The translations under genes were made by a program, and so were the position numbers. A stretch of 58,948 nucleotides of DNA, the filler included, from Jimgerdemannia flammicorona (taxonomy: Eukaryota): NCBI GenBank assembly GCA_003990765.1. It is 3 parts of 3 records of this genome, joined end to end, with 100 filler letters (N's around TTAATTAATTAA, not from the genome) between each part and the next. Parts side by side here need not be neighbours in the genome. Positions count along the whole stretch, not along the records: positions 39,374 to 58,948 come from RBNJ01001905.1; 2 more parts are not named here. One strand, 5' to 3'. Shown here in pieces: positions 1 through 58,714 of this stretch. Positions within the stretch are counted from its first letter, which is position 1. The number at the start of each line of letters is the position of its first letter. The notes under the pieces are model-generated. The model was not told where the DNA came from. It did no database searches and saw only the letters and a list, made by a program, of their open reading frames with translations.

Positions 1-10
1 AAAAAAAAAA

Positions 11-1381
11 GTAAACTTGACTGACTTTATTTCAAAGGAAATAAGAGGGGTATTTATACAAAATATAATTCAATAGTTACTAAGATATAAAGCTAAATAT
101 AAATTCCAATAACCAAATAAAATACTAGAACACAGAAAACTACCAAGTTTCAGTATCAGCACAGATAGTGTACAGGTTCAGAATGCTGGTATAATTTTGG
201 TGATATAGGAAAAGGGTGCTGAAATAATTCTGAGTCACATAAGGTCAGAATGCCAGTGAAGGAATAGCTGTTACACAGGAAAAAAATACTAGTATAATTT
301 AGTATAACTAAGGAACTTAGAGTAGAATATTCAGGACCATAGGGGCTTCATCTTCATCAGAGGTCAGAATATCTTTAAAGGAGATAAGATTGGTTTTATT
401 ATATATTTCACATATGTCATATGGGATGATACCATTACCAATGATGTCATCATGTTCAGTAGTAGTAGAGAGAGTGAGGAGATCTGGAGCTCTCTAGTCT
501 ATAAGATTCTCTTCTACAAAATAAGAGACAAATGTGGGGTCTTGAGGAGGTCTAATCTGAATGCTTGGGCCTTGGAATACTGAGATCAATCCTTGTAAGA
601 ATTGATCTAGGTTATCCTAGAGGATGGGATGCCAGAAGTCTTCTACTTTATCACTATTGAGAGTAAAGTAGACTGGACTTCTGTAGCCACTTTGGCTTCT
701 AGTATATTGATATGGTGGGCTGACAGATCTCTGAAGTCTGTGACTTTAGTATACTCCAAGTTGGGAATTAACTATAGTACATATCTGAAGATCTGATGAA
801 TCTTTTTAGCTGTCCTTATTTTATATATATCTATAGAGATGGTATCTTGTAACTCTTGAGAGCTGGTCTGTAGGAACTCCTAGCAGAAAAGGTTTCCTAT
901 TTTGTACTTCTGCCATATTTGGAGATATTTAGTAATAATGGTGATCCTTGTTTCTATTTTATAGCAGTAGAGGATAAAGTGATAAGGATCACCAGTACCT
1001 AGGTTAACACTAAGAGTCCTTATGGTGCAAGTCCTTATGGCTCTTCAGATGTCTTGAAACATTCTTTTTTCAACTGAGGGGCCTTGGTAGTTCCTTGACC
1101 TTAAGGTTTGGTAAGCAGTAGGTATTTTATTAATAGTAAGTCTTTAAGCTATTTTGGGATTAGTGGATCTTATTGAGTTGCTACTACTGTGGTTCCTTGA
1201 TCTTTCTTTTATATTTCTCAAGATGTCTGTACTGTAGTCACAATAACTCACAGTTGGTCATCATTGCTCATCTTGTAGCCTGGGTGAGTCATGCCATATG
1301 ATCTTCTTGTGCTCCAATCTGGTGGCTTGTAAGGAAGGCTGTCTCCTGTGCTGATATCATCATTCTGAGATCACTATTATA
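11..1381 (-). mobile_element. Long LTR of Ty3/Gypsy family B (copy 1, cut by window start), containing the degenerate accessory ORF at about 317..1125
   Basis: Colinear with 15660..17285 and with the reverse complement of 57130..58714. Ends in cattctgagatcactattata (decayed TGTAA terminus). No PPT adjacent, so it is a solo or 5' LTR. Confidence 0.85.
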
Positions 1382-15659: not shown

Positions 15660-17285
15660 TGTCACATAGTAGTCGCTGAGTTCTTCAAATATGTCAGATT
15701 CTCTTCAAGGTGTATCTCTTAAACTAACTCAAGTTTGTTATAAGTAATTTCTTATTGGAGTGCCTTCCCAAGGTCTTATAGTCCTCAAACTTCTTATCTT
15801 TAAACTGTCTTGTTATCTCTTTAGATTGCTTGTAAGAAATTATATATATTGTACTGAGAGAAACTGACTTTATTTCGAAAGGATATTTATACAAAATATA
15901 ATTCAATGGTTGCTAAGATATAAAGCTAAATATAAATTCCAATAACTAAATAAAATGTCAGGATACAGAAAACTGCCAAGTTCCAGTATTAGTACAGATG
16001 GTTGCACAGGTTCAGGATGCTGGTATAATTTGGTAATACAGAAAAAGGATACTGGAATAATTCTGGATCACACAAGATCAGAATACCAGTGAAGGAATAG
16101 TTGTTATATAGGAAAAGGATGCTGATCCATTAAAAAAAAAAAAAAAAAAGGAAAAGGATGCCAGTATAATTCAGTATAACTAAGAGACTTAGAGCAGAAT
16201 GTTCAGAATCATAGAAGCTTCATCTTCATCAGAGGTCAGAATGTCTTCAAAAGAGATGAGGTCTATGAATGTTTTGTCTATCTCATCATATAGGTCATGT
16301 ATTTTGTATGCTTTGTACATGTTGTACAGGATGACATCATCACTAATGATGTTATCATATTTGGTAGCAGTGAGATCAAGGAGGTCTGGAGCTCTCCAGT
16401 CTATGAGGTTCTCTTCCACAAAATAGGGAACAAATGTGGAGTCTTGAGAAGGTTTAACCTGGATGCTTGGACCTTGGAATACTGAGATCAATCCTTACAG
16501 AAATTGATCTGAGTTGTTCTGGAGAATGGAATATCAGAAGTCTTCTACTTCATCACTATTGAGGATGATAGTGGACTGGGCTTCTATAGCCACCCTGGCT
16601 TCTAGTACATTGATACAGTAGGCTGATAGGTCTCTGAAGTCTGAGACTCTAACATACTTCAAGTTGGAGATTGACCATAGTACATGCCTGAAGATCTGAT
16701 GAATCTTCTTAGCTGTTCTTGTTTTACATATATCTATAAGAGTAGTATCTTGTAGCTCTTGAGAGCTGGTCTGTAGGAACTCTTGGTAGAGAAGATTTTC
16801 TATTTTGTACTCCTGTCATATTTGGAGACATTTGGTAACAATGGTGATCCTTATTTCCATTTTACAATAGTAGAGAATAAAGTAATAAGGATCTCCAGTA
16901 CCTAGGTTGAGGCTAGGAGTCCTTCTTATATGGATCCTTATGGCTCTTCTGATGTCTTGGAACATTCTTTCTTTGACTGAGGTGCCTTGGTGGTTCCTTA
17001 ACCTTGAGATTTAGTGAGCAGTAGGCATTTCATTTATGGTAAGTCTTTGAGCTATTTTGGGATTAGTGGGTCTTGTTGAGTTACTACTACTGTAGTTCCT
17101 TAATTCTTCTTTTATATTCCTCAAGATGTCTGTACTGTGGTCACAATGACTCACAGTTGGTCATCATTACTCATCTCATAGCCTGAGTGAGTTATACCAT
17201 ATGATCTTCTTATACTCTGATCTAGTGGCTTGTGGGGAAAAGCTGTCTCTTGTGCTGATGTCATCATTCTGAGGTCACTGTTATA
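15660..17285 (-). mobile_element. Solo LTR of Ty3/Gypsy family B (copy 2) with 4-bp TSD
   Basis: TGTCACA... start and ...GTTATA (decayed CA) end. TCAT on both flanks (15656-15659, 17286-17289). Homologous to the PPT-adjacent LTR at 57130. Confidence 0.9.
16189..17028 (-). pseudogene. LTR-encoded accessory ORF (280 codons, in-frame stops)
   Basis: ATG at 17028 is in frame with the stop at 16189. Contains RTAKKIHQIFRHVLWSISNLKYVRVSDFRDLS and ends FIDLISFEDILTSDEDEASMILNILL. TATAAAAG at ~17109-17116 upstream. Confidence 0.8.
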
Positions 17286-18409
17286 TCATATAAAGATTGC
17301 TATATTTTAAGACTATTATTAGCTCATTATTATTTAAATTATATACTATTATGTCTTTTAAATATATATATCTCTTTATTACTATAAGATATCATCTTAT
17401 TTATCAAAAATAGTTTTTTATCAATTTCTAGTATATATAGTATATTAAGAAAGATGCTGGTAAATTTTACAATATTACTATGAAGATATATCTCTATATT
17501 TCCCTTTTCTTAAGTATAAATAATATTGTTATCTCCTAGTTTAATAGGTACAGAGTACTCAAAAGGCTCATATGTAGAGAACTATTCTCTGTATGATATT
17601 ATATATTATATGGCTCTAGAATCTATTAGTCAGACATCATTATCATTAACTATATTTGTAATATATTTGCTACTAGCAGTGCTGATATTATTATTACTTT
17701 TTATTAGATGAAAAGTATTTTACTAACTAGAATTTATAGATAACAGATTGGTAGATTTGACAGTAAGACTGTTTGTAGATATAGATCTCATACTAGTGGC
17801 AGAACTAATAGTAGAAATATTATTATCTATATATATTACTTATATAAAGAATATATCACTATTGTCAGTTTTAGTAGTATTTATATTGCTATACTTCTCT
17901 TTACCTTGATAGTTCTTTCTACTGCTCTTATATTGCCGATACTGGCTTCTATATTGCTACTTATTTTACTGCTCTCCTTGTCATTTTTTCAGTAATAATA
18001 ATAGTACTTCCTATATCTATACTTACTACAGTATTCATAGTAATTATCATACTTAGTTGATTAGCTACTATTATATTGATTTTAGATTTGAGTTCATTGG
18101 TCTTATTACTTATACTTTTAATCTCATTTGATACCATATTCATAGAATCTGTAAAAGGTATTTTCATTATCATCACTACCATTTCTTTGGTATATTTTCT
18201 TAATTATAAGACTCATAATTACATAGATATAATCTATAAGTCTGCTATCTTTATATATGACTATAATAACAATATTATATGTATTCAGAAGTTCTCTTAT
18301 AAGTACTATAACCTTATCTTTATTACTAATATAATCTGTAGATATACTGAGAGAATTTACTTAATTTACCAGATCATTAACATAACTGATATATTTATAG
18401 ATACTCAGA

Positions 18410-39373: not shown

Positions 39374-41171
39374 CTTCACTTTCTCTCGATGGAAGACTAC
39401 TTTGTCAACTACCATCTCCACTCTCCCACCACTCTGGCTACAGATCTCTTCTACAAGACAGTGATGTCACCCTCCCTGGGGACCCCAACCAACCCACCAC
39501 CCAGTAAGAAGATCACCCATCAACTCCTCCTACCTCACCAACTTCTCCTGTATCTCTGTCTGTTGCCCTTCCTCAAAAACAAATAGCCAATGTCCAGCCA
39601 ACCCTACCCACACTGCAATCACCCACCCTATAGTGAGCCACCCATTGCCAACACCTTCCACTAGTCTAGATTTCAAATCCTCCCAGCAATCTTACTCACC
39701 ATCTGGTCTCCTTACTACATCCAGTCTATTCCCTATAGCTACCCAAAAGTCCCCCAATACCTCACACTCTCCCAGCCAATATTCTGGCATCTGCACAAAA
39801 CTCCCAGCTTGCCCTACATTATAATACTCCTCACAATCTAATTGGCCACCATCCACTAGATGCCCAGCATGGAAATTCAATATAATATTCCTTTGCAGTA
39901 TTTATCACCATACTACCCAGAACTTAGAAGGAAGCCACTACTATACCTCAGCACTCTAGGCCCAGATTTCTGCCCAGTCCCACTCCTTACCAATTCCCAC
40001 TGCCTGTCAACTGCTCAGCCAAAGATCCTGGCCAAGTCTCCACTAATACTCCACTCTATCACCAATATCAAACTCAGCAAGTGGAACCCCCCCTAGCAAC
40101 AGTCTGTTCCATCACCACATTGCAGGGCCCCATACCTTCTCTCCCTCATTACCTCACCAGCACAGGCCTATTCAGTGCACTCCATCTACCACCCCCCACC
40201 AGAAGCCCTTATACTATAGCCATCAGCTTCCATTCAGCCTCACCAGAGAGAGCAGGTCTCCTGAGGACCCCCAGGGTGAGAATCTCATCTCCCACACCTT
40301 CTGCATCAGTGGAACCCAACCTCCTCCTCATAGTTCAACTGCCCTTCTCAACCACCAAGCTTGCAGATAGTGTAGTCTTCTAGGAAAATCCACAAGACCT
40401 AGGCCTCTCCTAACCACTGACTCTACAAGAGTATCCCAACTAATCTGTGACCTTCTCTTTACCCAAATCCAATCCTGAGCCAGCTTCATTAGCCTCTTCA
40501 CCACCCAGGCCAGAAAGTCCAAGTGATATATCACATACCATAGCTTGGGGAACCAGTACATATTCAGGATCGACACCTACCCCACCAGAGAGATGTGATA
40601 ACCCCCCCAATCTCTCAGAGCCTCTCCCCAAATGACCACCTTCCTCTCTTACCACACCTGTGGCAAGACTGATCCATATATAGAAAGGAAGATACTGAGA
40701 TACCACACCACCTCTCCTGTGGGGACAATTGTTCCAATGACATCCCCTCCCACAACCCATTTCCCAACACCAATGTCTCATACTTATGCCAGTTGAGTTT
40801 CACCCCAGAGTGTGCCTCATACCATTCCACTGCATCTGTAAGTACCTAAACATCTACCACTGATCTAAGACCAACTATCATATCATCTGCAAAGGCCCCC
40901 ACCTTCTACACCACACTATACATAGAGAGCCTGGCCACCTTCTGACAGATCCTATCTATCAAAGGCTCTAGTGAAAGGACATAAAGAATAGGGGACAGTG
41001 GATCTCCTTGAGATACTCCTCTCTCTAAGGAAAACACCAAACCCCTGTGACTATTGCATATCAGCACCACCCTACTGCCCTCCAACAAACTCAACATAGA
41101 GGCCTGAAACTGTAGTGGGATACCAATTCTGTCTAGTACCTTATTCAGCCATATCTGCCAAACATGGTCAT
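39374..41171 (-). mobile_element. Degenerate L1/Tx1-like LINE, 3' part of ORF2 (downstream of the chromovirus insertion)
   Basis: RGVSQGDPLSPILYVLSLEPL, AFADDM, LNWHKYE and ILNMYWFPKLWY. Related to the 12990..15476 element. Confidence 0.88.
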
Positions 41172-41938
41172 TGTAATAACTCTCACTTCTACCTCTCTCT
41201 TATTCTTTGGATAATTAGAAAAGTGGACTATTACTTAGGGACTTAGTATACAATGTGTACCAAGAAGCCTTCAGTTTGAGGAAGTGCTTGCTTAAAGTAG
41301 TTGTAGTGGCAGTGCCTTCTGTTTCAAAGATCTTTCTCTTTTGTCCTATTTTGAGGGTTTTGTTCTTTGCTGTGCACAGACTGAATTCACCTTGGAATTT
41401 AAGTTCAATGGGTTTACTTAAGTCTTTGGGGATTTATATACTGGTCTTAGTTCTGGCAGAAGTTAGCTAGGCTTCTGGAGTTTAGTCAGAAACACTAGAG
41501 TCACTTAGATGTCATTACTAAGACTCAGGGAAATGTGTGTGTGTGGGGGGGACTTGATTCTTATATTAAGGACTGAACTAAAACTACTTTATTTTGGATG
41601 GAAACTGGGGGGTATTTATACATGTTGGTCTGCGATTTCTGACTAAGTATGAGTGACTAATTTGGTAACTATAATGAGGTTTGTGATCACAACCTTTATT
41701 AGGTGGTTTTTTGGCAAAGAACAACTTTGTAATCAGGACCTCAATTACTAGACAATGATCAGCTGCTGTAGCAACTAATTACTGTAGTACCGATTGTTGG
41801 GGATAAGCTGGATATCATTTTCTATGTCATTTTACATCATTCATTCATTTGTCACTCACTATTCATATGTTATGCTCGATCATATAATGATGTCATTACC
41901 AGGTTATGTAATTGCTCATTGTGCCTCATTCTATTACA
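41172..41938 (-). repeat. 3' LTR of chromovirus
   Basis: TGTAATAAC...CTATTACA, direct repeat of 53936-54703. Minus-strand TATAAATA at ~41613-41620 followed by AATAAA. Confidence 0.95.
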
Positions 41939-41950
41939 TTCTTCCCACCT
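41939..41950 (-). promoter_or_regulatory. Polypurine tract
   Basis: Minus strand AGGTGGGAAGAA directly before the 3' LTR. Confidence 0.85.
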
Positions 41951-42792
41951 TAGAAATCAACATTCTTGTTGATTTGGAAATTGAGAACCAGGGGAGAGAA
42001 AGGTGGCGAATCCTCCTCAGGGTTGTTGCCATCTTCTTCAGTAGCAGGTGGAGTGGTTGCTGATGGCTTGCTGTCTAGGATGGAGAAGTCAATGAGGTCT
42101 GCAAATGGTTCTTGTATAGGGATGGGTGCTGGTGTAGAAGTTCTCCATCTGATGTGGTTGGAGCCATCCAAGTAGGGTTCTTGGTCCTCATATCTGGGAA
42201 TATCCATTCGGATGGGCAGTCCTTTAAAGAGATCAGAGAGGCCTTGGAGCCATTGATCTGGGTTATCATTCAGAAGGGGGCTCTAGTAGGGTTTGCAGTC
42301 AGTAGACTGGAGGGTGATTCAGGAGTTGGCTTCTTGGGCTGCCTTGATCTCTAGTTCATCAACCTCGAAAAAGGAGAGGTTCTGGAAGTCCTTCAGTTAG
42401 ACATAGTTGAGGTTGGGGATTGCAAAGAGTGCATGGCGCATAATTTGATAGACCTTCTTGGCAAGTCTTTACTTATTTCTGTCTAGGTGGGTCCAATCAG
42501 AGACTTGGTCCATGGGCAGGTCCTATGCCTGTTAGAGGAGTTGATGGCCAATCTCGTATTCATGCCAGAACTCTAGACAGCTGGTGGTAAGGTAGGCTCT
42601 TTCGATGACTTCATGGCTGTTGAGGACATAATGTCCTAGGTCCTGACTAGAGAGGTTAAGGGCCTCTGAGCAGTGGTTCCTTCCTTGGATAGCAACCTGG
42701 ATGTGTCCAAAGAGGCAGTCAATCTGGCTTGAGAGAGGCCAACTATGGTGAGTAGTTTGGCAGCAGATAGCTTGGCTGTGGGTAGCAGGCAT
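41950..42792 (-). pseudogene. Extra 3' accessory ORF (281 codons with in-frame stops), homologous to the family-B LTR ORF
   Basis: ORF fragments 42532..42792 and 41950..42207 share one frame. Read-through gives EFWHEYEIGHQLL...RLAKKVYQIMRHALFAIPNLNYV*LKDFQNLS...NPDQWLQGL. TATAAATA at ~42857-42864. Confidence 0.8.
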
Positions 42793-43442
42793 TTATGTCT
42801 TGTCTTTTCTTTATGAGAAGAGGGAGATGAGAGTTGTGGTATATTCTTACCTTGGGTATTTATACTTATTCACCCATCTGATGTGACCTTCCTTTGGTCA
42901 TGCTTACTGGCAAAATATTTGATCTGTTGCTATAAGTGAGGTATGTGCTGGTCATATGAGAAAATTCTGATTTCAAAGATCTTATCACTCATAGTTATGG
43001 TTACACAGGGTTAACAGGTCTTGGTCCACTTTTTTTTTTATCTGGTTGGTGCATTTGTAAGGACTGGTCATTCTTGTCTAGGGTGAGGGCTCTCATTATC
43101 ATGGCTGGGGATTCAAACCTCTCAGAAATAGACTTTCTTATAATCCAAGGCAATTCCTAGTAACAATATCTGTCACATGGATAGACTTAGACTGGTTTCG
43201 ATATTGTCAGCTTTCCTAAGTTCCATATGAAGTGTTCATCATCATCTAGCAGAGATGACACAGATGGTATGAAATGAAGTTGTTCAAATATATTTTACTA
43301 TACTGTACTAGATTGTTCTTTTGCTTGGGTATCTTCTTGTTAGTTATCCATAGTATTCCTTTTTCTGTAATGTTCAGTATTATATATTTCTGGATAAAAT
43401 ATGTAGTATTCTTCTACTCACTATGTGCTCCAATACTTAGAG

Positions 43443-46400
43443 CTATAGTTCCTTCCTTTGCTGGGGGGTGAGTGTTTTCATATAGTCCTGGAGGACTTCA
43501 TGTATATTCTTCAGAACTTCTTCTTTTTCCCAGGTAGCATTGTAGGTGGGGTAACTCTTCCACTTGATCAGGAAAAACCACTTGACTGTTTTGGAATATT
43601 TGCAGACCTTGTGGTCAAGTACTTCCTCAATTTCAAATTCCTCATGATCATTGATCCAAATTGGGGGTGGTGGTGGAACTGTATGCTTAGGGAATGGGTT
43701 CTCATAGTAGTCTACCAATTGGCTAATATGGAATACTGGGTGTACTCAGACATTGTGGGGAAGTTGTAACTTATAGTTGACTTCACTGATTTTTTCCATG
43801 ATCTTGTATGGTCCAATTCTTCTAATACAGAGTTTCTTAGCTGATTATTATATCAGAGTGTCTGGATGGAGGTGGTCTGTTCTAAGCATGACCATGTCAC
43901 TAATATCATAGGAGGCTTCTCTTCATTTTAGGTTCACATACTTGGTCTAGTAGTCTTGTGCTTCTATGAGAGCATCTCTTGCCATTTGAGTAAGATCAGA
44001 AATGGTCTCAGCCAGATCTTGGGCTGCTGGGACTGCTGATTTTGCAGTAGTACTCGGGGTCCTTGAGTGTTGACTGTGGTTCAGGAAGAATGGAGTCTTC
44101 TTTGTAGAGGTTTGCTGACTGTTGTTATAGGCAAACTCAGCATGGGCTAGGTACTTGTCCCAATCATTTTGCTTATAACAGTAGAAGATACTAAGCATCT
44201 GTTTGAGAGTCCTGTTGGTTTGCTCAGTTTGACTATTAGTCTGAGGGTGGTAGGTAGTAGAGAACTTCAGCTTAGTTCTATGGAGAGAGAAGAATGCCTT
44301 CCAGAAGTTGCTTGTGAACTTGGCATCTCAGTCAGATACAATAGTGCTAGGTATGCCATATAGCCTGAATACTTGATTGAGGAAAATCTCAGCAATCTCT
44401 GGTACTGTAGCAGTAGTCTTGGTGGGTGCAAAATGGGCTTATTTACTTAGGCAGTCTACAAATACTATAATGGCATCCCATCCTGCCTTGGTCTTGGAGA
44501 GTTGGACAATGAAGTCTATTGCAATTTGGTCTCAGTTGTGACTTGGAATAGACAAGGGTTGCAGGAGTTCTGCTAGTAGCATGTTACCACTTTTGAACCT
44601 TTAGTATATCTCGCATGAGGCCACAAAGTCTTTGATATCCTTGGTCATCTTTGGCCAGTAGAACTCTCTTGAGAGGAGGTTGTAGGTCTTTTTAAAACCA
44701 AAGTGTCCTACTACAGAAGTATCATGGAGTTCCTGCATGATCTTGAGTCGCAGAGTATCATTATTGGGTACAACCACTCTGTCATGGTCCCTGTAGATAA
44801 GTCCATCATAGTAAGTGAATCTCTTGGCCATTTGCCTTATAGGTTCTGGAACCTCAGCCTCTGGGTCTTGGCAGAATTGAAGAAATTTCATCAGAGGGCT
44901 GTCTTACTGGTAGCCTTTCTTGATCATCTGGATGAGGTCTCCAATTACTTCAACCATGAAGACAAGTTCATCTTCCATGTACCTGGAGAAACCATCAGCC
45001 ACATGGTTGGTTTTGCCTGGGATATACTTGATTTCCATATCAAAGTTGACAATGATTTCCATCCAGTGGGCTTATTTGTGGGTCAGCATGGGCTGTGTGT
45101 AAATATACTGCAATGCATGGTGATCAGTATAGGCCATGAATGGTTGTTCTAAGAGGAAATAGTGCTATTCCTGGAGTGCAGTAATAATAGCCAGGAGTTC
45201 CTTCTTATGAGTAGTATACCAGGTCTCAGCTGGCTTGAGCTTTTGGGAAAGATAGGCCACTGGGTGGTCTTTTTGGCTGAGTATTGCTCCAATAGCAATA
45301 TCAGAGACATCTGTAGTCAGAGTGAATGGCCTGGTAGGGTCAGGTGCAATTAGCACTGGGGCCTCAGTAAGGAGTCTCTTGAGATGGTCCATAGCCTGGG
45401 TGCATTCTGGGGTTCATTCAGCTTTGATGTTCACTCCTTTGTGGACCAGGCTGGTCAGTAGAGCTATAATGGTAGAGTATCCTTAGATAAACCTTCAGTA
45501 ATAACTGGCAATACTCAGAAAGTGCTGGAGTAACTTGAGGGTAGTAGGAATAGGAATATCCTTGAGGGCTGATACCTTTTGGTGGTCCACATTGATACCT
45601 TCAGCAGAGATGATATATCCTAGGTACTCAATCTGGTCTTGATAGAACTTACACTTACTCATCTTGGCATAGAGCTGGTGTTCTCACAGAAGAGTCAGCA
45701 CTTGTCTGAGGTGGGTGTAGTATAGCTCTACTGTCTCACTGTAGATTAGTATATCATCAATATATACAAGGATACAGATATTGAGGAGTGGTCCAAAGAT
45801 GTCATTCATTAGATACTAGAAAGTTGCTGGTACATTGGTCAATCCAAAAGGCATAACTCAGAACTGGTAGTGTCCAAACTGTGTTTAGAAAGCTGTCTTC
45901 TCAATGTCCTTCTCATAAATGAGAATCTGGTAGTAGCCATTTTGTAAATCCAGTAGGGAAAAGGTCTTGGCCTTGAAGATTTGGTATAGCAACTCGTCAA
46001 TCCTAGGCAAGGCATACTAGTTCTTGATAGTAATCTTGTTGAGGGCTCTGTAGTCAATATATATTTGCAGAAAGCCATCCTTCTTCTTGACAAATAGAAT
46101 GGGGGCTCCAAATGGAGAGTAGCTGGGTTCAATATATCCTTGGGCCAGTAGTTTGGTCAACTCATCCTTGAGGGTCTTGAGCTCAGGTTGGACCAGTTGG
46201 TAGATATTCTTGTATGAGGGTTCAGATTCTGGAATAAGATCAATTCCATGTTGGATTTGGTACTTGGGTGGAAGTCCTTGGGGGTCTTGGAATATATCTT
46301 GGAATTCTTCAAACAATTCTTGAGCTTCTGTTAGAATTGGGCTACTTGTAGTTTCAGTGACTTCTTGTACTATACAGATGAAGTAGGTATTTTCCATTTT

Positions 46401-47309
46401 TTGAGAGAGTCTCTTCATTTGAATGGTAGAGATGATTTTGATTCCTTAGTGGTTGGTACCTTCCTGGGGTGTCAGGATGATCTTTCTGCCTTCATGGGTC
46501 AGGTTAACCTCATTGGTTCTCCAGTTGATGTCAGGGTTGTGCTGGGTCAACCAGGCTTTTCCTAGGATAATATCTTGTCCTGGGAGGTCTATAATGCTGA
46601 AGTCCAACTTCTCATTATATTTGCCAATCTTGAGCAAGAGATCTTCACAGATCTTGGTCAATGGTGTAGTCTTTCCATCACCAAAGATAACACTTCTTTT
46701 CTCAGTAGTTGGTCTGCTTTGGGCTCTAATCTTCTTGGTGGTCTTGGTGCTGATATAGTTTCCAGTAGCACTACTATCAAGCAAGACATTGATATTCTGT
46801 CTGTGGACTTGACCTGTGAACTTGATGCAACTGTCCTCCTTCTTGATAGTGTTGAGCTTTTTATCCTCATTATTGTTGTCCCAATTGCTGTCAGTCTCCT
46901 CAAAGTCAGTTTCTCCCCATCCTTTACAAGGAGGGTTGTCTTGTTTGGGTTCCTCAGTCTGTTGGGCTTGGTTTCTTTCAGTGTTGATTTTGAAAACCTT
47001 GAAGAGGCATGCATGGTATTCACTTACATATTCCATAAAATATATTTGAATAGAATGAGGGCATTGTCCACATAGTACATAACCATCTGCAATTCTCTTA
47101 TACCAGTTTTCATCATCTTCCTTCATGGTAGTGACCTTTTGACTAAGAGGTTTGTTGGTTGATCCAAACTCTTTCTTGCCATGGTCTGGCTGGGAAAGTT
47201 CAGGGACTTCTTCAATGGTGAAATCTTGACAGATTTCTTCAATAATTGCTTGAGCAATCCTTTGGACTGTTTTGACTTCAAATAATGTGTCTCCAAAGTT
47301 TCGTAAGAT
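43443..47309 (-). pseudogene. Chromovirus pol: dUTPase C-half, aspartic protease, RT, RNase H, integrase, chromodomain
   Basis: RIAQ...HGKKEFGST in frame with [34 protein letters not shown] (~45754-45771); TDVSDIAIGAILSQ; ELHD..VGHFG; WDKYLAHAEFAYNN; EFEIEEVLDH..FLIKWKSYP..NATWE. Confidence 0.92.
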
Positions 47310-48065
47310 GAGGAGGAAGAAGGCCCAGTGGGAGCCAAGGGAGCAAACCCAGAGCCAGTGTCAAAGCAAACGGAAGACATGTGGAAGAGCATGTATAAGG
47401 GGGACGAACAAAGAACATAACTGAAAATGCATCAGCCATTTATTGCCACATAAAAACGCGGTCCTTATACATATACAAAATACGACATCCTAAAAGGGAG
47501 GATGCACCACAACTCGGGGCGAACCGAATTAGGAACCACATGACTGCCGGAGATAAGCGGAGATAAAGGGGGAGCCAATCCCAGTTGCAGGATAAAAATC
47601 ACAAACAAACACAAACAAAACAAATCCAAATCGAGATTAAAAAACATCCTTGCCCCCTCCGGGGTCTTGCGCTCACTCCAGGGTCTCGGCCTTACTCCGC
47701 TCCCCTCCGCTGCCTTCGGCCCCTCGCTTTGCTTGGGCTCGCTACAGCTCGCTCCATTTCGGCCTCACCTCTCGCTCGCGCTCACCCCTCCGGGGTCTGC
47801 GGATGTTTTTTAATCTCGATTTAGATTTGTTTTGTTTGTGTTTATTTGTGATTTATATCCTGCAACTGAGATTGGCTCCCCCTTTATCTCCACTTATCTC
47901 CAGCGGTCATGTAGTTCCTAATTCGGTTCGCCCTGAGTTGTGGCGCATCCTCCCTTTTGGGACGTCATATTTTGTATATAAGGACCGCGTTTTTACATGG
48001 CAATAAACGGCTGATGTATTTTCGGTTACATTCTTTGTTCATTCCCCTTATACACGCTCTTCCAC

Positions 48066-49280
48066 ATATCTTCCGTTCGCTTTGACACTGGCTCTGGGTT
48101 TGCTCTCTTGGCTCCTGCTGGGCCTTCTTCCTCCTCTGCTGTACCACCTGCCCTTGGGGCCTCCGTCCTCATCAACAAGCTCATGGGTGAGGTTCTTCCT
48201 CCTCCTCCCCCTCCCCCTGCCTTTACCCCCGCCACTGTCTCGTTCAAGGCCTACATCTCGTCCGCCATCCTCTCCCTCCCTGTGGACCTTTGTCCTTCTG
48301 GTCGTCCGCTCCTCTCCCAGTTCCGGTCGGTTCTTGCCCTCTCTGCCAAGGAGGCTCATCTCCGCCATGACGTTGACGTCATTGCTCCACCCACCGTCTG
48401 CTACTCTGTTCTCCCCGAGGCCTGCCGCCAAGCCCTCTCTGAAGAGGTTCGTGCTGCCACTGCCACCGCCAAGCTTGCCACCACTGACGCTGCCGCCACT
48501 TCTGCCACTGCCGCTTCTGCCTCCTTCCACTGTACCTGTGCTGCTTTCATGGCCTTCACCTCCTCCCGCCTTTCGGATGCCGCCCCCTTCTGTGGTTTTG
48601 ACATCCGCGATGTTCCTTCCATCGCCACTGACATCAATGCTATGCATCGCTTCCTCCTTGCCAGCACCTCTTTTGTTGCTCGTCTGCACGAGCAGGAGTC
48701 GTTACGTGCTGCCGCTGCTGCTCGCGCTACTGCCACTGCTCCCCTGCCTGCCTCCCCCGAGGTTTCAGTTTCCGAGGCCATTCGCGCCGAGGCTCGCGCT
48801 ACTGCTTGTGCTGAGGTTCGTTCCTTCACCGCCGCTGCCGCCAAGGCCCCCTCCCCCGCCAAGACCCCCACCAAGCCCAACCAGGCTTTGTCGGCCTCTT
48901 CCCGGTCCCCCTCCCCCACCAAGGCTTCCTCCTCTGCTCCCCCTGCCCCCAAGCATGGCTGCCAACTTGGTTCTCACCCCGTTGGGGCCTGGCCTTGTGC
49001 TGTCTGCTCCGGTTGCCTCCACCATGCCTATTGGCACCCGGCCAAGTCCGTCTGCCCCCATGGTGGTATTCCTCGCGCTGCTGCCCCTTCGGCTGCTCGC
49101 TTGCCTTCGGCCTCCTCTGCCGGTTCCTCCTCCGCCTCCTCCACCCGTGCCCCTGAATGCAAGGGCTGCACGAAAGCCTGTGGCCGCAAGGTCTGGTACT
49201 CTGACGGGGTGTGCTCCCATTCGTCGGGTTCGCCGCCTTCAAAAAAAGTCAGAGGGAAGGGGAAGGCCTCCCGCTCTTAA
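48066..49280 (+). CDS. PLE ORF1, Ala/Ser/Pro-rich with two Cys/His knuckle-like motifs (~404 aa)
   Basis: Start codon reads ATA at 48066 here but ATG in the other two repeat copies (MSSV.FDTGSGFAPL). CAVCSGCLHHAYWHPAKSVC and CKGCTKACGRKVWYSDGVCSH; basic tail. TATATAAG at ~47975. Confidence 0.7.
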   Translation: MSSVRFDTGSGFALLAPAGPSSSSAVPPALGASVLINKLMGEVLPPPPPPPAFTPATVSFKAYISSAILSLPVDLCPSGRPLLSQFRSVLALSAKEAHLRHDVDVIAPPTVCYSVLPEACRQALSEEVRAATATAKLATTDAAATSATAASASFHCTCAAFMAFTSSRLSDAAPFCGFDIRDVPSIATDINAMHRFLLASTSFVARLHEQESLRAAAAARATATAPLPASPEVSVSEAIRAEARATACAEVRSFTAAAAKAPSPAKTPTKPNQALSASSRSPSPTKASSSAPPAPKHGCQLGSHPVGAWPCAVCSGCLHHAYWHPAKSVCPHGGIPRAAAPSAARLPSASSAGSSSASSTRAPECKGCTKACGRKVWYSDGVCSHSSGSPPSKKVRGKGKASRS

Positions 49281-49366
49281 ACTTCCCCCCGGCGTAGTTC
49301 TCCCCCGGTGTCCCTGTCCCTTCTCGGATTCCGTCGTCGCTTCTGGTGCGGCCTGAGTGGTTCCTC

Positions 49367-51295
49367 ATGTTGTCCCCCCTTTGCCTTTCCCAGTTGCTTG
49401 TTCCGAACTTTCGGGTTTATTCTTCTCTTGGAGCTCTCTTATCTCCTTCCTTCTCTTTGGCTGACTGCCCCCTTTCTCCCCTTCAAGTCTTTGCCTTATC
49501 CTTGGGTCCTCGCTTCGTTTTCCCTGCAACTCCCTCACAATTCTTCTTCACTGATCCAGCTCATCTAACACGTTTTCGTCATGCTCTTGACCTTGCCATT
49601 TTCTTTCAAGATCGTGGTAAGATGCCCTCTCGCTATTTTGTTCCTAGCGATTGGGTCCCCCCTTCCAATGTCTCTTCACACTGTGTATTCCTCAACATGG
49701 CTTGCTCATTGTCCATTCCCGGATGCGCTCGCTCTTGCTTGGTTTCGGACCGTGCTGTGCATACCGCACTTAAATCGGTCAAGCAATTGTCTATGCATTT
49801 GCTCACAGTCACTGATAAGAATCAGGGTTTTGCACTTATTTCTAAGTCGCTCTACCTTGATGGCCTTTCTGCCCTCCTTCGAGCCATGGCTTACGAGCCT
49901 AGTGCTCTTGAATTAGATGAGGTTCTCACTCTTTTTCAGGTTTCTCTGGCTCATGCTAGATCACTTTCAGATTCTCCGTTCGTGAACCCCATTTTTAACT
50001 TCTTCCAGGACTCTTTGTCCTCCCCGGATATTTCTCTTCCAGTTTTCTATGCTCTTCCTAAAGTTCACAAGCCTCTTTTGGCTTGGCGTCCTATTACGGC
50101 TGCTTATAGCTCTCCTACCACCGAGATTTCGAAATGGTTATCCTGCTTCTTTCTCTCCTGGATGGCTCTCTTACAACACTGTCTTGGGCCTGAGTATACT
50201 ATTCTTCATGATACTCAGGAGCTCACCCTTCTCTGCTCCACCATTGTGCCTGTTCACCGTTTTTCCCATTTGGCCTCTGGTGATTTTTCTTCCTTCTATA
50301 CTGCTATTCGTTTTGATGAGATTGATGATTGCCTTCGCTTCTTGGGTTCCTTGGTTTTTCCCTTGGATTCTCCAGTTTTGCTGGCTTCCATTGTTGAGCT
50401 TACGCTCCTCGTCTGCGGCTCTAATTATTTTGAGTCGGCCCTTGGCTCTTTTCACCAGACTTCTAGTATTGCCATGGGTGCGAATTGTGCCCCCACCCTT
50501 GCCAACCTCGTTGGCTTGGCCCATGAATTGCATGCATTACGTGATACTACTTCACCTCTTTCCATTGCGTTCCGGGCTGGGGATATCTTCTTTCGCCGAT
50601 ATATTGATGACTTTATTGTCTTCGCTGTTGCTGGCATTGATATCTCTAGTGTGTTCCTGGGTGTCTACCCTCTCCATCATTCTATTACTTGGGTGTGTGG
50701 TACAACTAGTATTCCCTTTTTGGACCTTTCCATTTCTCTTTCTCCCTTCCAAACTGTTGTTTATTCCCGCTTTCCCCATTCCCAACAGTTCCCTGACTTC
50801 TTGTCCAATCATCCTCATCACACTCTTCTTGAATGTGTTCATGGTGAGGCTCGTCGTCTTGTACTATGCTGCTCCCGTCGTTCTGATTGGGTGTCTGCTG
50901 TTCGGGTTCTTGGCAACTTCGTAGTCCATCGTCGTGCCTACCCAATTTCTATCGTTCGTGATCTGCTTGCTTCTGTTGAATGGTCTGTTGTTTGCTCTTC
51001 CCTTCTCTCTCCTCTTTATCCCCCCTCCCTTCCCTCCCTCCCCCCTTACTCTCTCCATACCCCCTCTTCTTTCTCACCCCCGATTCTCATTGTACCATTT
51101 GATCATGCTCGCTGGGTTGCTCAATGCCCTGATACCATCCTGCGCTCTTCTCTTTCACGCCATGGACTTTCATCTCTTTCCCAACGCCCTCTGATTGCTC
51201 ATTCACGTCTTCCTTCTGTTTCTTCTTCAATCCATCGCTCTCATTTTGCGTTTTCGTCACCTTCTGGTGCCTCCGGCTCTGCCGGAGAGGATTAA
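49367..51295 (+). CDS. Penelope-like reverse transcriptase, open frame, no GIY-YIG domain
   Basis: LSPLQVFALSLGPRFV, TDKNQGFALISK (DKG-like motif), FYALPKVHKPLLAWRPI, DFSSFYTAI, QTSSIAMGANCAPTLANL, RRYIDD, IPFLDL, SNHPHH and RPLIAHSR, then stop. Confidence 0.9.
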   Translation: MLSPLCLSQLLVPNFRVYSSLGALLSPSFSLADCPLSPLQVFALSLGPRFVFPATPSQFFFTDPAHLTRFRHALDLAIFFQDRGKMPSRYFVPSDWVPPSNVSSHCVFLNMACSLSIPGCARSCLVSDRAVHTALKSVKQLSMHLLTVTDKNQGFALISKSLYLDGLSALLRAMAYEPSALELDEVLTLFQVSLAHARSLSDSPFVNPIFNFFQDSLSSPDISLPVFYALPKVHKPLLAWRPITAAYSSPTTEISKWLSCFFLSWMALLQHCLGPEYTILHDTQELTLLCSTIVPVHRFSHLASGDFSSFYTAIRFDEIDDCLRFLGSLVFPLDSPVLLASIVELTLLVCGSNYFESALGSFHQTSSIAMGANCAPTLANLVGLAHELHALRDTTSPLSIAFRAGDIFFRRYIDDFIVFAVAGIDISSVFLGVYPLHHSITWVCGTTSIPFLDLSISLSPFQTVVYSRFPHSQQFPDFLSNHPHHTLLECVHGEARRLVLCCSRRSDWVSAVRVLGNFVVHRRAYPISIVRDLLASVEWSVVCSSLLSPLYPPSLPSLPPYSLHTPSSFSPPILIVPFDHARWVAQCPDTILRSSLSRHGLSSLSQRPLIAHSRLPSVSSSIHRSHFAFSSPSGASGSAGED

Positions 51296-51790
51296 AAAAC
51301 ATCCTTGCCCCCTCCGGGGTCTCGCGCTCGCTCCGGGGTCTCGGCCTTACTCCGCTCCCCTCCGCTGCCTTCGGCCCCTCGCTTTGCTCGGGCTCGCTGT
51401 GGCTCGCTCTGTTTCGGCCTCACCCCTCGCTTGCGCTCACCCCTCTGGGGTCTGCGGATGTTTTTTAATCTCGATTTGGATTTGTTTTGTTTGTGTTTGT
51501 TTGTGATTTTTATCCTGCAACTGGGATTGGCTCCCCCTTTATCTCCGCTTATCTCTGGTGGTCATGTGGTTCCTAATTCGGTTCGCCCCAAGTTGTGGCA
51601 TGTCCTCCCTTTTGGGATGTCATATTTTGTATATAAGGACTGCGTTTTTACGTGGCAATAAATGGCTGATGCATTTTCGGTTATGTTCTTTATTCGTCCC
51701 CCTTATACACGCTCTTCCACATGTCTTCCATTTGCTTTGACACTGGCTCTGGGTTTGCTCCCTTGGCTCCCGCTGGGCCTTCTTCCTCCC

Positions 51791-53935: not shown

Positions 53936-54703
53936 TATAATAACTCTCACTTCTACCCCTCTCTTATCCTTTAGATAATTAGGGAAGTGGATAATTACTT
54001 AGGGACTTAGTACACAATGTGTACCAAGAAGCCTTCAGTTTGAGAAAGCACTCGCTTAAAGTAGTTGTAGTAGCAGTGTCTTCTGTTTCAAAGGTCTTTC
54101 TCTTTTGCCCTATTTCAAGGATCTTGTTCTTTGCTGTTTACAGACTGAATTCACCTTGGAATTCAGGTTCAATAGGTTTACTTAAGTTTTTGGGGATTTA
54201 TATACCAGTCTCAGTTCTGGCAGAAGTTAGCTAGGCTTCTGGAGTTTAGTCAGAAACACTAGAGTTACTTAGATATCATTACTAAGACTCAGGGGAATGT
54301 GTGTGTGTGGGGGGAACTTGATTCTTATATCAAGAACTGAACTAAAACTGCTTTATTTCAGATAGAAACTGGGGGGTATTTATACAAGTTGGTCTATGAT
54401 TTCTGACTAAGTATGAGTGACTAATTTGGTAACTATAATGAGGTTTGTGATCATGACCTTTGTTAGATGGTTTTTTTGGCAAAGAACAACTTTATGATCA
54501 AGACCTCAATTACTAGGCAATGATCAGCTACTGTGGCAACTGATTGCTGTGGCACTGATTGTTGGGGATAAGCTAAATATTGTTTTCCACATCATTTCGC
54601 ATTGTTCATTCATTCATCACTTGCTATTTATATGTCACACTTGATCATATGATGACATCATCACTGGGTCACATGATCACTTGTCGCATCTCATTCTATT
54701 ACA
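53936..54703 (-). repeat. 5' LTR of chromovirus
   Basis: TATAATAAC (decayed TG)...CTATTACA, followed by TSD GTCAT. Confidence 0.95.
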
Positions 54704-55460: not shown

Positions 55461-57129
55461 TCTCATATAACTGTACTGTCAAATACCACTCAAGAAGAAC
55501 CAACACCAATACTGATGTACTCTCAAGGATACTCCAAAATACCCCTATCAAGACTATTCAACATGAATAAGAAGTTATACTATGGATTAATTAGCTACCT
55601 TAGGCAGTAGAAGATGCCCAACCACCTTGAACTCTAGATAATTACCATTATCAATCAGACTTGGAAACAGTTTGAACTAGACAAAACTATACTCAGAAAA
55701 GGAGGAAAGCTAGTAATACCTAAATATAAGAAGTATTAAGTAATGAAGGAAGTATATGAGCAAAGATATCTAGGAGGAATCAATATATATATATAACAAG
55801 ATAAAAAAAACTATATGGTGGCCCAAAATGGAAGAAAACCTGTACCAATTTGTCAAAGAGTATAATAAGTACCAAAAACAGAAATAAGAACAATAAGACC
55901 AGATATCTGGGTCATCAAGAATTAAGCCTATCCCCTTCCACTACATTATAATAGATATCATTGGGCCACTACCAGTAATACTATCAGGAAACTGCTATAT
56001 TATAGTTATTGTAGACCTCTTTACCAAATAGATAGAAGTAGGAGCATTATAAGAAGCCAATGCTCTCTCTATAGCTGACTTCCTGTACTGAGAAATCATC
56101 TACCACTATAAGATACTAAAGCAAATCACAACAGACTAGTACAGAATTTGTCAATAGATTTTACAAGATAATGTATTAGAAATATAAGATTCAGCACATC
56201 AAGACTACCACATACCACCCTCAAGGAAATGGACAGACAGAAAGAACCAACAAGACCCTCAAGAACATCCTGGCAAAGATCTCAGAGACATATGAGAATT
56301 GAGATAACTACCTCCCAACAACCCTCTCTGTCCTATGAGACATATACATAGTCACAGAGCACACACTTTACCCCAAGAGAACTGCTCTTCAGAGAAGAAG
56401 ATTCTGATGGAATCTTAGCTACAAATCTAGACCTAACTTGGAGACAGATTAATGCAGAAATCCAGAGACTATACCAAATCAGGAAGAAGACTGAAGATTA
56501 CATTATCAAGTTATAAGCACTGATAAGGAAAAATACAGAAAAGAATCACAAGACTCTAGAACTCATCTAAATCAGAGAAAATGTCCTACTGTATCAAAAT
56601 ATAGTAGAAGCCTTATAGTTGTGAAAACTGGAGCCCAAATAAGAAGGACTCTTCTATGTATAAGATATCAAGGGAACTATCTTTTGGCTTAGAAAAATCT
56701 CAGAGACTATACTGCCTACTATGGTATATAGGAACAGACTCAAGAAGTACTATAAATCTATATAAGAGAAGCAAAACATGATAACTCCCTGCAAGGTTCT
56801 AGTCTACAAATCATAATAGCATATCTCATGACCAGCAGGCTATCTATCTGAACCATTCTCTAAGGGATATAGCACTAGTAACTACTCATCTATAAGACTT
56901 TCAAAGTTAGAGAAGTTCAAACTGTCAACTGATTAATCAAGATCAGAATCAGGTCCTTGCTCTATATGAAGGGAGTAACCCTTCACCATCATGCCAAAAT
57001 ACAAAGAGAAGATGTCAGCCCATAAATACTACTTTTTGACCCCTTACTAGAGGTTATGGGATCAGCAAATTTTTCAGGACTGGACCAATGAATAAGGACA
57101 TTCAAGAAGATCCTTATTTAGGAAGAAGA

Positions 57130-58714
57130 TGTAATAGTGATCCCAGAATGATGACATTGGCCCAGGAGACAGCCTTTCCTTAAAAGCCACCAGATTGAAG
57201 TACAAGGAGATCATATAGTATACAAGATGAGCAATAATGACCAACTGTAAGTCATTGTGACCACAGTATAGGTATCTTGAGAAATATAAAAGAAGGATCA
57301 AGGAACTGCAGTAATAGCAATCAATAAGACCCACTAATCCCAAAATAGCTCAAAGACTTACCACAAATGAAATGCCTGCTGCCTGCCAAACCTCAAGATC
57401 AAGGAATTACTAAGGTATCTCAGTCAAAGAAAGAATATTCCAAGATATCAGAAGAGTTATAAGGACCCATACAAGAAGGACTCCTAGTATTAACCTGGGT
57501 ACTGCAGAACCTTATCACTTTATCCTCTACTACTATGAAATAGAAACAAGGATCACCATTGCTACTAAATATCTCTAAATATAGTAGGAGTATGAGATAG
57601 GAAACCTCCTCTGTCAGGAGTTCCCACAGGCCAGCACTCAAGAGCTATAAGATGTCATTTCTATGAATATATGTAAAACAAGAATAGCTAAGAAGATCTA
57701 TCAGATCTTCAGGCATGCACCATAATTGATCCCCAACTTGAAGTATGTTAGAGTCTCAGACTTCAGAGACCTGTCAGTCTACTATATCAATGCACTAGAA
57801 GCCAGGGTAGCTACAGAAGCCCAGTCTACTATCACTCTCAATAGTGATAAAGTAGAAGACTTCTGGAATCCCATCCTCTAGAACAACTCAGACCAATTCC
57901 TGCAAGAATTGATCTCAGTATTCTAAGACCCAAGCATCCAGATTAGACCTCTCCAAGACCCCACATTTGTTCTCTATTTTGTGGAAGAGAATCTCATAGA
58001 CTGGAGAGCCCAGACATTCTTGTTTCTGCTGCCACCAAATGTGATAATGTCATTAGTAATGACATCATCCTATACAATATATATAAGATATATAATATAT
58101 ATGAAATACATGACCTATGTGATAATGATAAATTCACAGACCTCATCTCCTTTGAAGATATCCTGACCTCTGATGAGGATAAAGCCCCTATAGTCTTGAA
58201 CATTCTACTCTAAAGTCCTTTAGTGATACTAAATTATATCAGCATTAGTATTCTGATATAATACTAAATTATGCCAGCACTAGTATTCCAATGTGACACT
58301 GAATTATTCTAGCACTATTTTCCTATACTACTAAAATTATATCAGTATTCTGAATCTATATAACCATTAGTGCTAACTCTGGAACTTATCAGTTTTTTCT
58401 TTCCTGGTATTTTATTTTAGTTATTGAAATTTATATTTAGCTTTATATCTTAGCAACTATTGAATTATATTTTGTATAAATACCTCTCTTATTTTCTCTG
58501 AAATAAAGTCAGTCTACTCAGTATAATATACACACTTCCTTACAAGCAATCTAAGAGATAACAAGATAGTTTAAAGATAAGAAGTTTGAGAACTATAAGA
58601 TCTTGTGAAGGTACTCCAATAAGAACTTGCTTATAACAAACTTGAGTTAGTCTAAAAGATATATCTTGAAGAGAATCTAATATATTTGAAGGACTCAGCA
58701 ACTACTATATAACA
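57130..58714 (+). repeat. 1.58-kb 3' LTR of family B (copy 3)
   Basis: TGTAATAG...TATAACA. Two TATA boxes (~57285 and ~58475), ~35-bp tandem repeats at ~58228-58350, AATAAA at ~58502. Confidence 0.9.
57372..58213 (+). pseudogene. LTR-encoded accessory ORF, copy 3
   Basis: MPAACQTSRSRN...INLGTAEPYHFILYYYEIETRI...EYEIGNLL...AKKIYQIFRHAP*LIPNLKYVRVSDFRDLS...NNSDQFLQEL; frameshift near the 3' end. Confidence 0.8.

Follow-up and report, generated by a model that had tools for sequence, protein, structure and literature searches.

An accessory gene of Ty3/Gypsy retrotransposons in Jimgerdemannia flammicorona lies behind pol in a chromovirus and, by prediction, inside the long terminal repeat of a second family

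The subject of this work is a stretch of 58,948 nucleotides from the genome of the fungus Jimgerdemannia flammicorona (assembly GCA_003990765.1; three parts joined end to end), in the following referred to as the window, and an accessory gene of retrotransposons that it carries in several copies. One of these, ORF-A, is what decay has left of a genuine protein-coding accessory gene, a third open reading frame (ORF3) at the 3' end of a Ty3/Gypsy group, and belongs to an element here designated element A. Related frames occur in three units of about 1.6 kb (family B; copies B1, B2 and B3), for which the readings as long terminal repeats (LTRs) and as part of a second Ty3/Gypsy lineage are reasonable. 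The findings probably, if by no means certainly, reflect a conserved ORF3 family that forms a 3' module in two layouts, possesses a promoter of its own and encodes a product acting in trans.

ORF-A is located between pol and the 3' LTR of a chromovirus

Element A is a Ty3/Gypsy element of 13.5 kb on the minus strand. The following parts are of importance here:

41172..41938, minus strand: 3' LTR, starting with TGTAATAG and ending with TTATTACA; TATAAA and AATAAA 27 nt apart, near 41620 and 41593
41939..41949, minus strand: polypurine tract (PPT) GGTGGGAAGAA, immediately behind the ORF-A stop codon
42792..41950, minus strand: ORF-A (MPATHSQ...NVDF*), ATG to TAA, 280 codons plus stop, decayed copy of the accessory gene
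42859..42864, minus strand: TATAAA within GTATAAATACCC, 72 nt ahead of the ORF-A start, candidate internal promoter
43390..47130, minus strand: pol, with protease, reverse transcriptase (RT), RNase H, integrase, SH3-like domain and chromodomain
53936..54703, minus strand: 5' LTR, 87% identical to the 3' LTR

When stops are read through, the coding order of the element is CCHC gag, dUTPase, protease, RT, RNase H, integrase, SH3-like domain and chromodomain. The Pfam domains RVP_2, RVT_1 (E 2.8e-30), RT_RNaseH_2 (E 1.3e-29), Integrase_H2C2 (E 8.7e-21), rve, SH3_Tf2-1 and Chromo (PF00385; E 1.8e-8) succeed one another in this order in a single frame. With the order protease, RT, RNase H, integrase and a chromodomain at the integrase's C-terminal end, element A is a chromovirus; it furthermore has two LTRs with TG..CA ends, a 5-bp target-site duplication (ATGAC) and a PPT.

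The chromodomain ends near 43475 and pol near 43390, from where a non-coding spacer of about 600 nt with stops in every frame leads to ORF-A, the frame of which differs from that of pol. At the other end the ORF-A stop codon (41950-41952) adjoins the PPT, and the LTR begins at 41938. This is the position, between chromodomain and PPT, that had been assigned to the frame in an original prediction made on this DNA, and the lengths of 281 and 280 codons stated there for ORF-A and its family-B counterpart agree with the 280 and 279 codons, each plus stop, found for ORF-A and the frame of B2.

ORF-A is interrupted by six in-frame stops (codons 87, 90, 108, 132, 158 and 170) and is 53-59% identical to two intact relatives, protein P0001 and the ORF on a metagenome contig, L001. 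DNA contigs of four soil-metagenome runs were aligned to the region, and 40 of the 470 differences were listed. Four of the stops are sense codons in these contigs (42534 A>G, 42525 A>T, 42319 T>C and 42284 T>C), and two of the four reverted sites give Trp, as in L001. Of the six stops, at least four occur in the window copy alone; the other two sites lie outside the differences listed.

The window copy of element A has A/T for G/C of the metagenome copies about twice as often as the reverse (41171-43500); for one run, X1, the differences comprise 87 A>G and 66 T>C as against 45 G>A and 36 C>T. Differences between repeat copies consist of transitions to 80-90%, and the majority sequence of the family-B LTRs is devoid of any CpG. 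The excess of transitions and the loss of CpG look like cytosine deamination of silenced repeats.

Related frames are found in three family-B units

The ORF-A frame, with X in place of stops, was used as a tblastn query against the window. It yielded 11 rows at E<=10, namely the match to itself, four rows on the three family-B copies and six rows with E>1. The matches lie at 57360-58016 (plus strand) in B3 (E 1.3e-27, 32% identity over 219 aa), at 16914-16393 (minus strand) in B2 (E 7.2e-27, 34.5% over 174 aa) and, in two frames, at 1062-664 and 694-542 (minus strand) in B1 (E 3.3e-17 and 7e-4). Identity to ORF-A is 32-34% over 133-219 residues in all three copies. The similarity along the length of the frames that had originally been noticed is thereby borne out, and the strings quoted for it are indeed present, HFILYYYEIETR, AKKIYQIFRHAP*LIPNLKYVRVSDFRDLS and NPIL*NNSDQFLQEL in B3 and FIDLISF in B2. 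That both frames start with MPA is correct for ORF-A and B3 and incorrect for B2, which starts with MPT, and for B1, where the ATG is now ATA. The features of family B, named as LTRs on the reading given above, are:

1..1381, minus strand: LTR B1, cut by the window start; ORF-B from 1125, ATG now ATA, frameshift near 664
15660..17288, minus strand: LTR B2; TATAAA at 17116; TATAAA at 15891 and AATAAA at 15874
17028..16189, minus strand: ORF-B2, 279 codons plus stop, start MPT, four in-frame stops, no frameshift
55790..56755, plus strand: degenerate integrase ahead of B3, with zinc-binding part, core containing YHPQGNGQTERTNK and C-terminal part
57120-57129, plus strand: polypurine run AGGAAGAAGA, 10 nt, directly ahead of B3
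57130..58714, plus strand: LTR B3, read as a 3' LTR; TATAAA at 57285; TATAAA at 58475 and AATAAA at 58502
57372-58213, plus strand: ORF-B of B3, start MPA, stops and one frameshift; tblastn E 1.3e-27

The units are about 79% mutually identical. B1 and B2 share 79.6% identity with each other and 79.0% and 79.7%, respectively, with B3, and they are therefore not a recent LTR pair, their mutual identity being no higher than that of either to B3. The flanks become unrelated precisely at the TG...CA ends, which carry short inverted termini. Since the purine run AGGAAGAAGA and a decayed integrase on the same strand lie immediately ahead of B3, this copy is taken as a 3' LTR; a full-length family-B copy is not present in the window. 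The PPT and the LTR start precede the start codon of the ORF by 242-260 nt, and in B3 the ORF occupies approximately positions 243-1084 of 1585 while TATAAA and AATAAA are at 1346 and 1373. The entire gene is consequently placed inside the LTR and upstream of a module of TATA, 27 nt and AATAAA. Judged by these predicted TATA and poly(A) signals, the family-B frame has the layout of a gene borne by the U3 region.

It might be put forward that the units are not LTRs at all and instead represent independent repeats of small size, for instance copies of a non-autonomous element or members of a dispersed gene family, close to retroelement debris. In accordance with such a view, B1 and B2 have no attached internal retroelement sequence, lie 15.9 kb apart around host-like genes, and lack matching target duplications (TTATA vs ATGAT for B2). 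On the other hand, the sharp TG...CA ends with their inverted termini, the first 8 nt in common with the element A LTR, the position of B3 directly behind a purine run and a same-strand integrase remnant, and a TATA-AATAAA module near the 3' end that is homologous to that of the element A LTR are all characteristics of LTRs, and we regard independent repeats as highly improbable.

The accessory gene has intact relatives and evolved under purifying selection

A first profile, consisting of the window copies and one first match, was searched against 1.84 billion representative proteins at E<=1e-3. Seven proteins were retrieved, six of which (P0001-P0006; 138-342 aa) are true relatives and all stop-free, while P0007 was rejected as an ankyrin-repeat false match. 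A further relative, P0010 (325 aa), came from a second profile search. The contigs encoding these relatives are all metagenomic and short (619-4848 nt). The alignment separates the proteins into at least three subtypes, one A-like, one B-like and one further. The original notion of an accessory gene rather than a chance frame is strengthened by these stop-free relatives, which have no Pfam, PDB or fold match.

A pattern scan of metagenome contigs produced 151 matches and from these one locus, L001, whereas none of 50 matches in viral contigs was confirmed. L001 is a contig of 1535 nt with an intact A-type ORF of 291 aa. It has TATAAAAG 80 nt upstream of the ORF and, after the stop, the purine run GGAGGGAGGA followed by TGTAATAAG. 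The layout of element A, that is TATA, ORF, stop, polypurine tract and TGTAATA, is thus repeated.

Between ORF-A and the L001 ORF, nonsynonymous divergence (dN) is 0.33 and synonymous divergence (dS) is 1.68 (dN/dS 0.19; 265 codons). Shifting the identical alignment by one or two bases raises dN/dS to 0.94 and 1.26, and the DNA flanking the two frames scarcely aligns. The accessory gene has evolved under frame-specific purifying selection, as had been surmised from protein similarity despite DNA divergence.

This bears on the idea that a host gene or gene fragment was captured once and is carried along as a passenger without function for the element. Gene capture by LTR retrotransposons is known, and the protein has no recognisable retroelement domain. 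However, purifying selection acted on this very frame between copies whose synonymous sites are nearly saturated, the frame was kept in at least three or four diverged subtypes, its position beside PPT and LTR is identical in element A and L001, and an exhaustive search gave no longer, host-like or named-genome relative. A mere passenger is very improbable indeed.

The encoded protein is acidic and matches no known family

Seven intact relatives have isoelectric points of 4.05-4.94. A membrane segment was not found in any of them, the highest mean Kyte-Doolittle hydropathy over 19 residues being 0.39-1.07, and the accessory protein is not env-like in the sense of an ORF3 product with signal peptide or membrane-spanning segment. 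The original prediction was right in this respect. In the full-length relatives (L001 ORF, P0003, P0002 and P0010) the first 120 residues are mildly basic and the C-terminus is strongly acidic. Reading of the alignment furthermore reveals 7-9 Arg/Lys within an Arg-rich N-terminal stretch of 40 residues and a leucine-rich motif at the C-terminus. Within the acidic tail, A-like and B-like subtypes have both retained the motifs F-x-D-L-I-x-F and P-x-[VI]-L-N-[FI]. Two AlphaFold2 models, the quality of which is considered below, contain helices from about residue 20 to 190 and no confident structure past residue 215.

Searches in domain and structure databases did not provide an identity. In Pfam, no family was matched by P0001 at E<=10, nothing credible by ORF-A, and nothing credible by the 11 rows of alignment A4, for which four families appeared with one row each (best E 0.016). 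In the PDB, P0001 found nothing by sequence and the profile a single row, Albicin, which was dismissed at E 0.77. Foldseek with the better, still poor, model gave no PDB match at E<=1e-3, and the ESM Atlas gave sub-threshold rows only for P0001 (best feature score 0.82, TM<=0.39). By these comparisons the accessory protein belongs to no known protein family.

A duplicated gag or capsid was considered and rejected (hhalign of the family against element A gag: probability 0.1, E 0.59). The same holds true for readings of the tail motifs as clathrin box, SUMO-interacting motif or LC3-interacting F-x-x-L, which were unsupported, and as HP1-binding PxVxL, the +2 residue being Asn.

The 3' ends of the two families are collinear

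The LTRs of element A, family B and L001 all open with TGTAATA, and the first 8 nt of family B are those of the element A LTR. The element A LTR also shares with the 3' part of the family-B LTR TTGTATAAATACC, a spacer and TCTGAAATAAAG.CAGT, with TATAAA and AATAAA 27 nt apart. Local alignment scores were judged against 300 shuffles. The element A 5' LTR scored 44 against B3 (shuffle mean 22.0, standard deviation 2.3) and the 3' LTR scored 34, values that were reached by none of the shuffles. The distance from the ORF stop to the TATA of the LTR module is 330 nt in element A, 262 nt in B3 and 298 nt in B2.

With this module and the LTR start TGTAATAG in common, the 3' ends of the two families are collinear, a relationship that is new relative to the original prediction. 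PPT and LTR start are directly behind the ORF in element A and ahead of it in family B. As far as can be read from the sequence, the 3' ends differ solely in the position of the LTR boundary, and the family-B gene would thus have come to lie in the would-be U3.

The original prediction had called the gene swappable. Along these lines, unrelated Ty3/Gypsy lineages could each have gained the gene, or one could have obtained it from the other, by template switching between co-packaged RNAs, the differing positions relative to the LTR being the result of separate acquisitions. Several points speak in favor of such a cassette exchange. The family-B integrase matches that of element A in two short pieces only (29% over 85 aa and 41% over 46 aa), a chromodomain was not detected in any of the three frames of the B3 integrase remnant, and the ORF identity of 32-34% is no lower than that of the integrase pieces. 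In bdelloid rotifers, ORF3 types are common to unrelated retroelement lineages according to Rodriguez et al. (2017; PMC5408684). Sharing is, however, not confined to the ORF. It extends to the LTR start TGTAATAG, the style of the purine tract and TATA-27 nt-AATAAA at a similar distance, so that the whole 3' end with the LTR would have moved and not a gene cassette; moreover, the family-B integrase is too decayed for phylogeny. The data are accounted for no less well by a single ancestral 3' module in which the LTR boundary shifted, and an exchange, if any occurred, would have taken the LTR too. The attribute swappable is therefore not upheld, and we consider cassette exchange a minority explanation that is possible, if doubtful.

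The accessory gene is preceded by a candidate promoter

A single TATAAA is present upstream of the ORF in element A (position -72; 668 nt examined), L001 (-80; 375 nt examined), B3 (-87) and B2 (-88), and in B1 it is 88 nt before the start-codon position. These distances agree with the separate TATA 65-90 bp upstream that had been predicted for each gene. The density of TATAAA in the window is 0.62 per kb per strand. In addition, L001 and B3 agree perfectly over 16 nt, AAAGACTTACCACAAA, shortly ahead of the ATG (355-370 in L001, 57346-57361 in B3). This leader scored 34 for L001 and B3 (0/300 shuffles) and 29 for L001 and B2 (2/300). The proteins of L001 and B3 are only about 45% identical, and an initiator or leader function is conceivable for the shared 16 nt. 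Similarity between the element A spacer and the region upstream of the L001 ORF is weak (7/300 shuffles). The conserved TATAAA distance and the leader shared by L001 and family B fit a separate promoter for the accessory gene.

The accessory gene would then be transcribed from its own TATA as far as the LTR's poly(A) signal, giving an mRNA of about 1.2-1.4 kb. Because AATAAA is situated just behind the second TATA, it would be missing from genomic RNA begun there and present in RNA begun at the upstream TATA, which makes an ORF mRNA of this size plausible, and one family-B LTR would suffice for its production.

Alternatively, the gene may have no promoter of its own and be translated from an LTR-driven spliced subgenomic RNA or from genomic RNA. 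This is the usual route for 3' genes of retroelements, and the CERV protein of Caenorhabditis elegans Cer1 is made from a spliced mRNA (PMC10309623). What speaks against it here is that the TATAAA distance of 72-88 nt is constant in element A, L001 and family B though the surrounding DNA cannot be aligned, and that a conserved acceptor-like AG was not seen on comparing L001 and family B by eye, an AG preceding the ATG in L001 and not in family B. In family B, the ORF is upstream of the LTR TATA-AATAAA, so that RNA starting from that TATA in the 5' LTR would not include the 5' copy. Expression without a separate promoter seems distinctly doubtful to us.

Discussion

The results describe a new protein family whose role, accessory ORF3 of LTR retrotransposons, is a known one, and whose second layout, with the gene inside the LTR, is unusual. 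A conserved ORF3 family with two layouts, its own promoter and a trans-acting product is the reading we prefer, and a number of observations weigh against it. Among the alignments of LTR modules, that of the element A 3' LTR with B2, which has a 10-nt deletion there, is not significant (score 25, 33/300 shuffles). DNA context beyond the window comes from one locus only, L001. For the interior of family B there is only a single truncated, heavily decayed copy, on account of which the lineage of family B and its absence of a chromodomain are weakly founded; of the original statement that the gene is shared by two distinct Ty3/Gypsy lineages, the chromovirus and the existence of a second family stand, and the weak side is this one decayed integrase. 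With respect to the promoter, TATAAA is a frequent word in AT-rich DNA, and the element A spacer does not contain the 16-nt leader and is without similarity to the first 240 nt of the B3 LTR (score 19, reached by 264/300 shuffles). None of the five sequencing runs that match the stretch, each of them with less than a tenth of sampled words, is recorded as RNA; all but one, for which the organism is given as a code, bear a soil-metagenome label. Among the three family-B copies dN/dS is 0.33-0.38, which is borderline when compared to a neutral simulation at the observed transition share of 90% (median 0.54, 2.5% point 0.37). Finally, both AlphaFold2 models are poor (mean pLDDT 41.8 and 47.3, from alignments of 11 and 12 rows), and neither Pfam nor the structure models led to recognition of a DNA- or RNA-binding domain, for which reasons the activity proposed below is derived from composition and motifs.

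The accessory protein would be soluble and acidic; its N-terminus is Arg-rich, some 170 helical residues would form the body, and the acidic tail would be disordered. Trans-acting regulators such as foamy-virus Tas, Rev and Rex likewise combine an Arg-rich start and a helical body with an acidic tail that bears bulky hydrophobic residues. In analogy, the protein may act in trans on expression of its element, either on transcription like Tas or on RNA like Rev and CERV. Within the preferred reading, a trans-acting regulator of the element's own expression would be the most likely function, with a chance that we put at perhaps not quite even. Activation of transcription may be slightly more probable than RNA handling. 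Control of copy number, or anti-silencing, would look no different from these two in the present data. The earlier designation as transactivator or anti-silencing factor would have the acidic, hydrophobic-studded tail as its one basis. A structural or entry role is unlikely.

The preferred reading also implies that each family-B LTR, solo LTRs included, could be a full unit of promoter, gene and terminator. The sag (superantigen) ORF of mouse mammary tumour virus lies in the U3 of its LTR. The family-B frame resembles it in that some 280 codons are wholly contained in a 1.6-kb LTR, upstream of TATA and poly(A) signals. It differs in that it has neither sequence nor fold relation to sag, encodes no membrane segment and belongs to fungal Ty3/Gypsy elements, in one of which, element A, the gene is outside the LTR. 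Foamy viruses have tas/bel1 with an internal promoter, and primate lentiviruses have nef. Element A is similar in carrying a gene 3' of pol that ends at the PPT, with a TATA-like element of its own upstream and an acidic C-terminal part in the product; homology is lacking, and there is no env between pol and the ORF. The original comparison of the placement with that of nef and tas in element A and of sag in family B is apt.

A more far-reaching proposal takes the family-B LTRs as self-contained genes, composed of promoter, regulator of 280 codons and poly(A) signal, that supply a trans-factor even as solo LTRs. The factor would switch on a retrotransposon family or export its RNA, and the plus-strand primer site would have moved from behind the gene, as in element A, to ahead of it, as in family B. 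If true, this would be the first fungal 'complex' retrotransposon with a separately transcribed regulatory gene. We rate this proposal as rather unlikely.

Retrotransposons with additional genes have been described from several hosts. The ORF3s of bdelloid rotifers (Rodriguez et al., 2017; PMC5408684) are similar in that a third ORF follows pol and, within one group of hosts, is not limited to a single lineage of LTR retrotransposons, and a dUTPase, as found in element A, is a feature of three of four Adineta vaga lineages as well. In contrast, the rotifer ORF3 products are env-like proteins, GDSL esterases or DEDDy exonucleases, whereas the accessory protein described here has no Pfam match and in one lineage is encoded inside the LTR. 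Among fungi, some chromodomain Gypsy elements contain an 'add. ORF' of unknown function and others a dUTPase (Novikova et al., 2010; PMC2864245); fungal chromoviruses, some of them with dUTPase, can bear an additional ORF. This 'add. ORF' is known here from the figure legend, the available text giving no sequence, position or analysis, and the 25 genomes do not include Mucoromycota. CERV of C. elegans Cer1 is an accessory protein of a Ty3/Gypsy element that belongs to no family and is needed for RNA export (PMC10309623). As a novel accessory protein acting in trans on the RNA of its element it is a model for a possible role of the protein studied here, and it differs in being made from a spliced mRNA, while the function considered here is deduced from composition. 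In the literature outside subscription journals, we found neither this accessory protein family described nor any fungal retrotransposon reported to have an ORF within its LTR.

It is through additional genes behind pol, as complex retroviruses show, that a simple retrotransposon comes to regulate itself or the organism it inhabits. Fungal examples have received very little attention; the one mention that we found, in the available material, is the unlabelled 'add. ORF' of a figure legend. As natural intact copies of the accessory gene exist, no reconstruction is needed for tests. The two natural layouts, internal and intra-LTR, offer a ready comparison of the shift in LTR boundary and its effects on expression. 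Should the LTR-borne copies be expressed, solo LTRs would be protein-coding units and not inert.

Further elements and genes in the window

Element A is interrupted in its dUTPase by a nested foreign element of 4.5 kb (47310-51792), which separates the two Pfam halves of the dUTPase (approximately 51824-51952 and 47157-47309). The nested element has direct terminal repeats of 503 nt (47635-48137 and 51290-51792; 92% identical) and, at 47310-47649, an inverted copy of part of each terminal repeat, an arrangement which we take to be reminiscent of DIRS/Ngaro-type elements. It contains two ORFs, one of 424 aa without Pfam match (48082-49356) and one of 649 aa with a weak RVT_1 match (49346-51295; E 0.0075). 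The insertion site of element A is an RT fragment of the long interspersed nuclear element (LINE) type. The flanks (40676-41022 and 54765-55196) both match one continuous inverted stretch at 13098-14086 with 66% identity.

LTR B2 has a Copia-type Pol_BBD domain (PF22936, E 6.9e-10) immediately upstream of it and in the same orientation (17392-17626, minus strand), and a run of N follows further upstream, near 19.5 kb. Tandem repeats occur in three blocks (20460-21390, 21572-23250 and 24408-25090), their units being about 74 nt and about 150-300 nt long and 70-83% identical; the long open frames seen there on either strand probably result from this repetition. B1 and B2, which have the same orientation and are 15.9 kb apart, flank two long open frames at 3657-12124 (plus strand). 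These frames of 1492 and 1307 aa are separated by 65 nt and contain Sacsin domains and a BTB domain. The closest named relatives of this BTB/sacsin-domain gene belong to the Mucoromycota, the top one being a Jimgerdemannia flammicorona protein with 41% identity, followed by an Acaulospora protein with 25% identity.

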